Positions 47,434 through 54,557 of a stretch of DNA of 64,000 nt are shown here, piece after piece (position 1 is the stretch's first letter; every line of letters starts with the position of its first letter). The stretch lies in NCBI RefSeq assembly GCF_988242995.1, contig NZ_OZ547043.1, one strand, 5' to 3'. The notes below the pieces were generated by a model. It worked only from the letters and a program-made list of their open reading frames with translations, was not told the origin of the DNA and made no database searches. A program made the position numbers and the translations under genes.

Positions 47434-47501
47434 TCTTACCGGGGCGCATCTTGTGCCCCGTTTTCTCCTCTGCGACAATGGCGTTTTTTCGACGCTCCCT
47501 T

Positions 47502-50892: not shown

Positions 50893-51005
50893 GTAAGGTA
50901 CTGGAAATGTTGACCACTTAATCGGGACTGGTGTTATTATTGCCCGCTTATGTCGTCTGCATTGCACAGAGGACCCTTCAATGAACAGAGAAGAAATGCA
51001 CTGTG

Positions 51006-52361
51006 ATGTTGTCAAAATTTAAGCGTAATAAACATCAACAACACCTTGCCCAACTACCCAAGATTTCTCAATCAGTTGATGATGTCGATTTCTTTTACGC
51101 TCCCGCCGACTTCCGGGAGACGCTGCTGGAAAAAATAGCCAGCGCGAAGCAGCGCATTTGCATTGTCGCCCTGTATCTCGAACAGGATGACGGTGGCAAA
51201 GGCATTCTGAACGCGTTGTATGAGGCTAAAAGGCAGCGTCCGGAACTGGATGTGCGGGTGCTGGTCGACTGGCATCGTGCACAACGTGGACGCATTGGCG
51301 CTGCGGCATCTAACACTAACGCTGACTGGTACTGCCGCATGGCGCAGGAAAATCCGGGCGTAGATGTTCCGGTTTATGGCGTGCCAATCAATACCCGTGA
51401 AGCCCTTGGTGTTCTGCACTTTAAAGGCTTTATCATCGACGATAGCGTACTTTATAGCGGTGCCAGCCTGAACGATGTTTACCTGCATCAGCACGATAAA
51501 TATCGCTACGACCGTTATCATCTGATCCGTAACCGTAAGATGTCAGACATTATGTTTGAATGGGTTACACAGAATATTATGAATGGCCGCGGCGTTAATC
51601 GTCTGGATGATGTTAATCGGCCAAAAAGCCCGGAAATCAAGAACGATATTCGTCTGTTCCGCCAGGAGCTGCGTGATGCCGCTTATCATTTCCAGGGCGA
51701 TGCCGACAACGATCAGCTTTCCGTAACGCCGCTAGTGGGGCTGGGGAAATCGAGTCTGTTGAACAAGACCATTTTCCATCTTATGCCTTGTGCCGAGCAG
51801 AAACTAACCATCTGTACGCCATACTTCAACCTGCCAGCAATCCTTGTGCGCAATATTATCCAGTTGCTGCGCGAAGGGAAAAAGGTCGAAATTATTGTTG
51901 GTGATAAAACCGCGAACGACTTCTACATTCCGGAAGATGAACCTTTCAAGATAATTGGCGCATTGCCTTATCTCTATGAGATCAATCTGCGTCGTTTCCT
52001 GAGCCGTTTGCAGTATTACGTCAATATTGACCAGCTAGTGGTTCGGTTATGGAAAGATGACGACAACACCTATCACCTGAAAGGGATGTGGGTTGATGAT
52101 AAGTGGATGTTGATCACCGGTAATAACCTGAACCCGCGCGCCTGGCGTCTGGATCTGGAAAACGCCATTTTGATCCACGATCCACAACTGGAGCTTGCGC
52201 CGCAGCGAGAGAAAGAACTGGAGCTGATCCGCGAGCATACCACCATCGTTAAGCACTATCGCGATCTGCAAAGTATTGCCGATTATCCGGTGAAGGTTCG
52301 TAAACTCATCCGCCGTTTGCGCCGTATCCGCATCGACCGATTAATTAGCCGCATCCTGTAA
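51006..52361 (+). CDS. pssA: CDP-diacylglycerol-serine O-phosphatidyltransferase (PLD-type)
   Basis: Two HxK(x)4D-like phospholipase D motifs (HFKGFIIDD and HLKGMWVDD); 451 aa from second ATG. Confidence 0.92.
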   Translation: MLSKFKRNKHQQHLAQLPKISQSVDDVDFFYAPADFRETLLEKIASAKQRICIVALYLEQDDGGKGILNALYEAKRQRPELDVRVLVDWHRAQRGRIGAAASNTNADWYCRMAQENPGVDVPVYGVPINTREALGVLHFKGFIIDDSVLYSGASLNDVYLHQHDKYRYDRYHLIRNRKMSDIMFEWVTQNIMNGRGVNRLDDVNRPKSPEIKNDIRLFRQELRDAAYHFQGDADNDQLSVTPLVGLGKSSLLNKTIFHLMPCAEQKLTICTPYFNLPAILVRNIIQLLREGKKVEIIVGDKTANDFYIPEDEPFKIIGALPYLYEINLRRFLSRLQYYVNIDQLVVRLWKDDDNTYHLKGMWVDDKWMLITGNNLNPRAWRLDLENAILIHDPQLELAPQREKELELIREHTTIVKHYRDLQSIADYPVKVRKLIRRLRRIRIDRLISRIL

Positions 52362-52365
52362 TCAC

Positions 52366-52394
52366 AACCCCGTCCTGTACGGGGTTTGTTTTTT
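52366..52394 (+). terminator. intrinsic terminator after pssA
   Basis: aaccccgt-cctgta-cggggtt followed by tgtttttt; the T-tract runs into GGAGG, the likely yfiM ribosome-binding site. Confidence 0.7.
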
Positions 52395-52406
52395 GGAGGC
52401 CACGTT

Positions 52407-52730
52407 TTGCGTATTCTTTTTGTCTGCTCGCTATTGTTACTTTCTGGATGCAGCCATATGGCTAACGATAGCTGGAGCGGGCAGGATAAAGCTCAACACT
52501 TTATCGCCTCGGCGATGCTTTCCGCCGCCGGAAATGAATATGCACAGCATCAGGGGATGAGTCGCGATCGCAGTGCCACTTTCGGGCTGATGTTCTCTGT
52601 TGGGCTGGGCGCGTCAAAAGAACTTTGGGATAGCCGCCCCGAGGGGAGCGGCTGGAGCTGGAAAGATTTTACCTGGGATGTCGCCGGTGCAACTACTGGC
52701 TATACCGTCTGGCAGTTGGCGCATAATTAA
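52407..52730 (+). CDS. yfiM: small lipoprotein
   Basis: Signal peptide with lipobox LLSGC; TTG at 52407 lies 7 nt after GGAGG; the upstream ATG at 52386 sits inside the terminator stem. Confidence 0.65.
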
Positions 52731-54025: not shown

Positions 54026-54344
54026 GCCATTATGTCTCCTGCCGTAATCCGATGCTTTTGTCGGTCGCTGTTGTTTATTTTTTTTGGTAAAGAAAATGTT
54101 ATACATTTGTTGCGTATCATTATGCAACCTTAACCATGAATTTAGTTAGCAGGAAAATGGTTATTGAGGAGCTTAAGGATAAATTTCTGGTAAGGAGGAT
54201 GTATGGAAGTGGGCAATTTGGGGAAACCGTATCCGTTGCTGAATCTGGCGTATGTGGGGGGATAATGCGGATATCTACACTCGCCGCAACTCTTCGTAGG
54301 TCGGGTAAGACGCGCCAGCGTCGCATCCGGCATTTATTCCGCAC

Positions 54345-54557
54345 CAGCGCAAAAAGGCCATCCGTCAGGATGGCCTTCTGCTTAATTTGATGCCTGGCAG
54401 TTTATGGCGGGCGTCCTGCCCGCCACCCTCCGGGCCGTTGCTTCGCAACGTTCAAATCCGCTCCCGGCGGATTTGTCCTGGTTGGGAGAGTGTTCACCGA
54501 CAAACAACAGATAAAACAAAAGGCCCAGTCTTCCGACTGAGCCTTTTGCTTTATTTG
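54345..54557 (-). terminator. rRNA operon tandem terminators T1 and T2
   Basis: Reverse complement matches the rrnB-type T1/T2 terminator block; hairpins at about 54517-54546 (T1) and 54351-54379 (T2), each followed by a U-tract. Confidence 0.85.

Follow-up and report, generated by a model that had tools for sequence, protein, structure and literature searches.

The 45-nt gap between pssA and yfiM in Escherichia coli carries a terminator hairpin whose U-tract runs without a break into the ribosome-binding site of yfiM. We interpret this junction as a partial intrinsic terminator within the trxC-tapT-patZ-pssA-yfiM cluster: yfiM would be reached by read-through and translated by de novo initiation at the TTG at position 52407. 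To this reading we assign a probability of roughly 0.7. The junction is best filed as a well-conserved case of a known class, the intra-operonic partial terminators, ordinary though unusually compact, and nothing here overturns current understanding. It provides one clean and deeply conserved case of a terminator and a ribosome-binding site within a minimal gap, and thereby a natural test-bed for stop-to-terminator distance versus read-through and for a U-tract as an aid to the next gene's translation. It also offers a concrete connection between the expression of PssA and that of YfiM, a protein whose role is predicted in lipid head-group chemistry.

Genomic setting

The window analysed here is a stretch of 64,000 nucleotides, and positions refer to it unless MG1655 is named. 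Strain CFSAN018748 shares the segment 52200-52800 with 100% identity, and the segment has a match in 5425 of 5426 complete E. coli genomes. Adding 49699 to a coordinate of the CFSAN018748 locus, or subtracting 2671721 from an MG1655 coordinate, gives the position in the window. The RefSeq coordinates of pssA and of the 107-aa yfiM (Table 1) hold in the identical strain and in a K-12-like strain, and MG1655 has the identical layout, with pssA at 2722727-2724082 and yfiM at 2724128-2724451. The cluster annotated at the locus is trxC-tapT-patZ-pssA-yfiM, and kgtP, which begins at 52727, is convergent with yfiM. A five-gene cluster of this composition (trx-DTW-PatZ-PssA-YfiM) has been described as a conserved operon in which YfiM-1 was proposed to act on the PssA product, YfiM itself being predicted to be a Lipocone-superfamily enzyme that acts on lipid head groups (10.1101/2025.01.14.632903). 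The pssA-yfiM junction is not discussed in the papers found to mention yfiM.

Table 1. Features of the pssA-yfiM junction and their positions in the window
Feature	Position	Strand	Basis or remark
pssA coding sequence (phosphatidylserine synthase)	51006..52361	+	RefSeq annotation of identical strain; stop TAA 52359-52361
Terminator hairpin	52366..52386	+	5' arm 52366-52373, loop 52374-52378, 3' arm 52379-52386; sequence reading, pattern scan, fold
U-tract of terminator, TGTTTTTT	52387..52394	+	doubles as U-rich leader just before the yfiM SD in read-through mRNA
yfiM Shine-Dalgarno (SD) GGAGG	52395..52399	+	anti-SD duplex -9.3 kcal/mol
SD-to-start spacer CCACGTT, 7 nt	52400..52406	+	sequence reading
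yfiM coding sequence, 107 aa, TTG start 52407-52409, YfiM-family (DUF2279) lipoprotein	52407..52730	+	RefSeq, NCBIfam NF008028
yfiM lipoprotein signal peptide, lipobox LSGC, Cys15 codon 52449-52451	52407..52451	+	translation, alignment
In-frame TTG at the stem/U-tract junction, longest-ORF rule only (114 aa), judged a non-start	52386..52388	+	
Internal ATG (Met18), head of the 89-90 aa YfiM versions, 3' of the lipobox	52458..52460	+	

Layout of the junction

Only four nucleotides (TCAC) separate the stop codon of pssA from the terminator stem. The hairpin has an 8-bp stem with six G-C pairs and a 5-nt loop (AACCCCGT/CCTGT/ACGGGGTT; -11.4 kcal/mol), its arms are 95-98% paired in ensemble folds, and seven of the eight nucleotides after the stem are U. 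The junction thus contains what defines an intrinsic terminator, namely a GC-rich stem-loop downstream of a stop codon with a U-rich tract directly after it. Direct reading and a pattern scan confirmed the earlier observation that the U-tract leads straight into GGAGG, followed after seven nucleotides by the TTG at 52407. With an anti-SD duplex of -9.3 kcal/mol, this spacing, a TTG codon and a position conserved in orthologs, the segment has the properties of an initiation site. The SD lies 8 nt and the yfiM start 20 nt from the end of the stem, which covers neither.

As a motif in a single genome the terminator does not stand out. A simple terminator pattern was found three times against 2.2 expected in shuffled sequence, a second scan gave seven against 7.0, and the fold z-score of the 86-nt region was only -0.94; at such values neither the pattern nor the fold energy is evidence alone, and the evidence comes from conservation. 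A search of 52300-52450 against Rfam returned no family at E <= 1.

Conservation of the junction

Eighty Enterobacteriaceae loci, one per species, were fetched, and 79 of these together with the window made up the 80 loci analysed. Hairpin, U-tract, SD and start were found in 78 of them. Among the 78 species with pssA upstream, the gap between the two genes measured 39-57 nt (median 44), the distance from stop codon to hairpin was 2-7 nt in 73, the distance from hairpin to start was 15-20 nt in 74, and a T-rich tail followed the hairpin in nearly all. The median hairpin energy across the 80 analysed loci was -14.1 kcal/mol.

The alignment of 78 distinct sequences revealed extensive change within the stem with retention of pairing. 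Overall, 93% of stem cells were paired and five of nine pairs had changed on both sides; one pair occurred as GC in 55 sequences and AU in 19, another as CG in 52, UA in 14 and UG in 12, and a third as UA in 49 and CG in 10. The covariation score of 0.32 was reached by none of 500 shuffles, and slid controls scored 0.16 at most. When the partner strand was slid by one to three columns, stem pairing fell to 30-61%. Judged by these compensatory changes, the terminator stem is kept by selection.

Within E. coli, 5233 of 5426 complete genomes carry an exact copy of the 60-mer at 52366-52425. At greater distance, a 60%-identical ortholog on a metagenomic contig keeps the order patZ-pssA-yfiM-MFS and, at the junction, the stop codon, GC stem, T-run, a GGGA and an ATG start. 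Homologs of YfiM at 38-49% identity occur in unrelated contexts without pssA, which ties the module to the enterobacterial pssA-yfiM junction. The genes pssA and yfiM are in the same frame in E. coli, and a PssA-YfiM fusion made by stop-codon read-through was considered and rejected: the gap varies between 39 and 57 nt and not in multiples of three, and we judge the shared frame to be due to chance.

Two Citrobacter loci depart from the common arrangement. In Citrobacter freundii M-21 a yfiM-like gene, which may be a second copy, has neither pssA upstream nor the hairpin and U-tract layout. Citrobacter sp. Awk 4 keeps the hairpin, the SD and a GTG start; the upstream sequence is not pssA and has another terminator-like hairpin, which suggests a rearrangement exactly at the boundary between stop codon and hairpin.

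Start codon of yfiM

The preliminary description had yfiM translated from the TTG at 52407 and not from an upstream ATG at 52386. The second codon was misread, as 52386-52388 is a TTG made of the last stem base and the first two bases of the tail; the choice of 52407 is borne out by RefSeq, NCBIfam, ortholog starts, SD strength and spacer indels. This start is not new, being the existing RefSeq annotation in the identical strain and in K-12. The codon at 52386 heads the 114-aa mechanical ORF only because the in-frame stop is the TAA of pssA and no other ATG, GTG or TTG occurs in that frame between the two.

The NCBIfam YfiM equivalog NF008028 ("YfiM family lipoprotein") matches the translation with 192 bits against a cut-off of 117, and its position 2 falls on residue 9 of the 114-aa translation, which puts model position 1 at the codon 52407. 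Homologs are mostly 107-108 aa long with an N-terminus of M-R/K. An ATG, GTG or TTG lies 14-15 codons 5' of the lipobox cysteine in all 80 analysed loci and has the best SD among the candidates. At this orthologous position, window included, the start codon is ATG in 56 loci, GTG in 18 and TTG in 6, the TTG codons being confined to Escherichia. Among the sister Escherichia, three loci (L003, L005, L006) have a spacer shorter by 2 nt and a fourth (L007) a T-run longer by 1 nt; indels of this size would be frameshifts in coding sequence, and thus the stretch 52386-52407 is non-coding. The shorter spacer belongs to these other Escherichia lineages and was found in none of the 5426 complete E. coli genomes.

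Translation from 52386, which would yield 114 residues and would need the terminator stem to be melted, is very improbable. That codon is in frame and is the first of start type after the in-frame stop, and the seven additional residues would leave a workable signal peptide. Against this, it has no SD (its anti-SD duplex is -1.1 kcal/mol versus -9.3 for 52407), its first base is stem-paired and the codon is 84% paired on average. Among the analysed species an in-frame start at its position was found only in E. coli and E. whittamii (L004); in 74 other species it is absent or out of frame, the indels in sister Escherichia displace it, and both RefSeq and NCBIfam use 52407.

Across genera, the strength of the SD is inverse to that of the start codon. 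Loci with GTG or TTG starts had a median anti-SD duplex of -9.3 kcal/mol (n=24) versus -4.8 for those with ATG (n=55; p ~9e-10 by a Mann-Whitney test uncorrected for phylogeny), and the stronger SDs beside non-ATG starts are consistent with a maintained initiation rate. UUG starts about 3% of E. coli genes with an output 10-100% of that of AUG (Hecht et al., bioRxiv 10.1101/063800). Like other UUG-initiated E. coli genes, yfiM combines a near-cognate start with a strong SD at standard spacing, and nothing in it is unusual. A search of INRI-seq and TRAINSPOTTER supplementary data for evidence of initiation at 52407 gave no yfiM entry.

Shorter YfiM versions of 89-90 aa in some datasets (P0044, 90 aa; P0078, 89 aa) begin at the ATG at 52458, which is 3' of the lipobox, and such a product would therefore have no conserved signal peptide. 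The annotated TTG start is supported as the right one and the 114-aa and 90-aa versions are not, a practical gain that is small. The N-terminus of a 112-aa E. coli YfiM (P0101) agrees with the ORF in the +1 frame from a TTG at 52393, and this version presumably represents a frameshifted allele or assembly. An ATG within the TTTTATGGAG junction of Citrobacter and Enterobacter was considered as a conserved alternative start and rejected, as its frame relative to the main start varies.

The N-terminus read from 52407 has the features of a lipoprotein signal: a positive n-region, a hydrophobic h-region and a lipobox of the form [LVI][ASTVI][GAS]C. In an alignment of 23 homologs Cys15 is invariant and Gly14 nearly so. 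Mature YfiM begins at the lipidated Cys15 from either start, and N-terminal sequencing of the mature protein thus cannot decide between them.

Transcripts across the junction

Published transcript data put a drop in read coverage at the junction. In supplementary file 2 of Adams et al. 2021 (PMC7815308), MG1655 2724116(+) is entered as "primary, pssA", a coordinate that corresponds to 52395 in the window, one base past the U-tract. Their DirectRNA-seq counts in 800-nt windows at this site, which are small, were 179 reads upstream versus 30 downstream without bicyclomycin and 90 versus 46 with it, and the site was classed as a Rho termination region with a Rho score of 3.05 and p = 3e-5 (PMC7815308). 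Downstream transcript is therefore reduced and not zero; by our arithmetic it amounts to about 17% per 800-nt window, rising to as much as about 40% should all the reads come from the 324-nt yfiM. In Adams et al., supplementary files 1 and 3 contain no curated plus-strand Term-seq 3' end at the pssA terminator, and the searched supplements of PMC12207403 (TERMITe) and PMC6131387 (SMRT-Cappable-seq) contain no pssA or yfiM ends.

The sensitivity to bicyclomycin indicates that Rho contributes somewhere within 800 nt downstream of the pssA end. We propose that most transcripts would stop at the terminator and that some 17-40% would continue. Rho would then clear read-through RNA beyond the short yfiM, where the RNA is expected to be untranslated and antisense to kgtP; action there would explain most of the three-fold bicyclomycin effect, and Rho may also contribute directly at the pssA-yfiM junction.

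Proposed expression of yfiM by read-through

In the model that we favor, most pssA transcripts would end at the U-tract, and the read-through minority would be the only yfiM mRNA, given that the interval between hairpin and SD is too short for a promoter. On read-through RNA the hairpin would re-form 8 nt upstream of the SD and leave both SD and start free. Ribosomes would initiate de novo at the TTG at 52407, aided by the strong SD and probably also by the U-rich tract 5' of it. The net effect would be a low expression of YfiM at a fixed ratio to PssA. With no room for a promoter after the stem, no promoter-like match in the last 500 nt of pssA and a terminator ahead of any transcript that starts upstream, read-through is the most economical model for yfiM.

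The earlier suggestion that yfiM depends on terminator read-through or on unfolding of the hairpin holds in its first part, since the terminator must be transcribed through. Its second part does not: the hairpin covers neither the SD nor the start, and it need not open for initiation at 52407. Sequestration of the SD by the last codons of pssA was likewise considered and rejected. In the E. coli fold GGAGGC pairs with 52348-52356, but in 77 species such pairing is no stronger than with shuffled upstream sequence; the mean unpaired probability of the SD was 0.25 against 0.29 with shuffled upstream, and the native value was the lower one in only 42 of 77. In reporters, an intercistronic helix of -9 kcal/mol left downstream initiation unhindered (Osterman et al. 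2013, PMC3592434).

Two other accounts of transcription at the junction were weighed. Under one of them the drop in coverage at the pssA end is mainly Rho-dependent, and the hairpin serves chiefly as a block to 3' exonucleases that stabilizes the pssA mRNA end, not as an intrinsic terminator. The Rho classification of 2724116(+) speaks for this account, as do a U-tract that has no discrete Term-seq 3' end listed, the weak TTG start of yfiM and the untranslated RNA antisense to kgtP beyond yfiM, a typical Rho substrate. We nevertheless regard it as unlikely. The motif, with its GC-rich stem followed by a run of U, is a textbook intrinsic terminator, the U-tract beside the stem is conserved in almost all of the 78 species and would not be needed for a mere exonuclease block, and the best-scoring coordinate falls 1 nt past that tract. 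The bicyclomycin effect (from 0.17 to 0.51) could be explained by Rho stopping read-through after the 324-nt yfiM, still inside the 800-nt window. Under the other account, yfiM is transcribed from a separate promoter, located towards the 3' end of pssA or across the hairpin; termination of pssA transcripts is then essentially complete and the two genes are independent units. This we consider improbable. A weak -10-like TGTAAT at 52357-52362, overlapping the pssA stop codon, offers a candidate element, but it does not have the conserved A at position 2, and a consensus scan found no promoter-like match on the plus strand in 51860-52406. The 20 nt after the stem are wholly taken by U-tract, SD and spacer, which leaves no room for a promoter between hairpin and SD, and any transcript that starts upstream of 52366 must still pass the terminator. 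Gene order and gap are moreover conserved as a unit, and the cluster has been described as an operon (10.1101/2025.01.14.632903).

A further but doubtful possibility is a ribosome-gated attenuator. By masking the 5' arm, a ribosome that finishes PssA would let RNA polymerase go on, so that the output of yfiM transcript would scale solely with closely coupled translation of pssA; the switching of start codon and SD across genera would then reflect stabilizing selection on a tight PssA:YfiM ratio. With the stop codon 4 nt from the stem, a terminating ribosome would, more speculatively, cover the 5' arm, and read-through might be favored when pssA translation closely trails RNA polymerase. In a tR2 reporter series, terminators 8-9 bp from a stop codon were almost fully repressed by ribosomes, and full efficiency needed more than 30 bp (Li et al. 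2016, PMC4824070). The conserved distance of 2-7 nt is within this tR2 repression range, which makes a ribosome-dependent tuning of read-through plausible. Ensemble folds of 100-500 nt contexts contained no competing antiterminator fold, the arms remaining paired at the level given above, and without an alternative structure set against the terminator stem the junction is not a classical ribosome-mediated attenuator of the trp or pyrBI type.

Comparison with known systems

Partial terminators inside E. coli operons are common: of the 1774 terminators mapped by Conway et al. 2014 (PMC4161252), 264 are of this kind. The pssA-yfiM junction resembles the internal terminators of that study, such as the one in sdhCDAB-sucABCD, in having a hairpin and U-tract between co-directional genes; in both, coverage drops and stays above zero, and the distal gene is set lower. 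It differs in being far more compact, with a 45-nt gap that has no free nucleotides compared with about 300 nt between sdhB and sucA, and in showing no evidence of condition-dependent use. We scanned 164 kb of E. coli sequence (the window and two 50-kb segments of MG1655) for ORF stops followed within 15 nt by a hairpin at least as stable as -8 kcal/mol, then by a T-rich tail and, 10-30 nt later, by an SD with a start codon. Under this rule, which is crude and not validated on known cases, pssA-yfiM was the only match, and the degree of compaction appears uncommon.

The position of the pssA stop codon, 4 nt from the stem, falls within the repressed range of 8-9 bp or less in the tR2 reporter series (Li et al. 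2016, PMC4824070, where the pyrBI attenuator is also cited). Unlike ribosome-repressed terminators, the junction has no leader peptide, regulated pause or alternative antiterminator, and unlike tR2 near a stop codon, the pssA terminator is not fully repressed in vivo, as seen in the six-fold drop in coverage. The U run that immediately precedes the SD of the second cistron recalls the A/U-rich enhancers that depend on ribosomal protein S1, and in the work of Osterman et al. 2013 (PMC3592434) A/U-rich tracts so placed raised translation 3-5 fold, whatever the start codon or the arrangement of the cistrons. In contrast to those enhancers, the yfiM tract is a terminator tail first, with a length of just 8 nt and a stable stem before it; its possible role as an enhancer is extrapolated from reporters on other sequences.

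Observations on neighboring sequence

A mechanical ORF for pssA begins with a GTG at 51003, one codon 5' of the RefSeq ATG at 51006. A second terminator-like hairpin occurs on the plus strand at 47440-47460 (CGGGGCGCA-TCT-TGTGCCCCG followed by TTTTCTCCTC), close behind trxC and with 41 nt left to the start of tapT. Terminators behind both trxC and pssA would thus appear to divide the five-gene cluster. At the other end, yfiM and the convergent kgtP overlap by 4 nt (52727-52730), and the pair has also been listed as an excludon candidate. Published Term-seq data contain strong minus-strand 3' ends at MG1655 2724366 and 2724397, equivalent to 52645 and 52676 in the window, from which it follows that the kgtP mRNA ends 50-85 nt inside yfiM, in antisense orientation. 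The region of these ends (52630-52730, minus strand) has no terminator with a U-tract, its only GC hairpin lying at about 52632-52653. Farther downstream, in the interval from kgtP to the 5S rRNA gene of the neighboring rRNA operon, the minus strand at 54299-54517 gave weak hits below the Rfam threshold for naRNA4 (25.5 bits) and RtT (24 bits), which are probably REP/RtT-like repeats.
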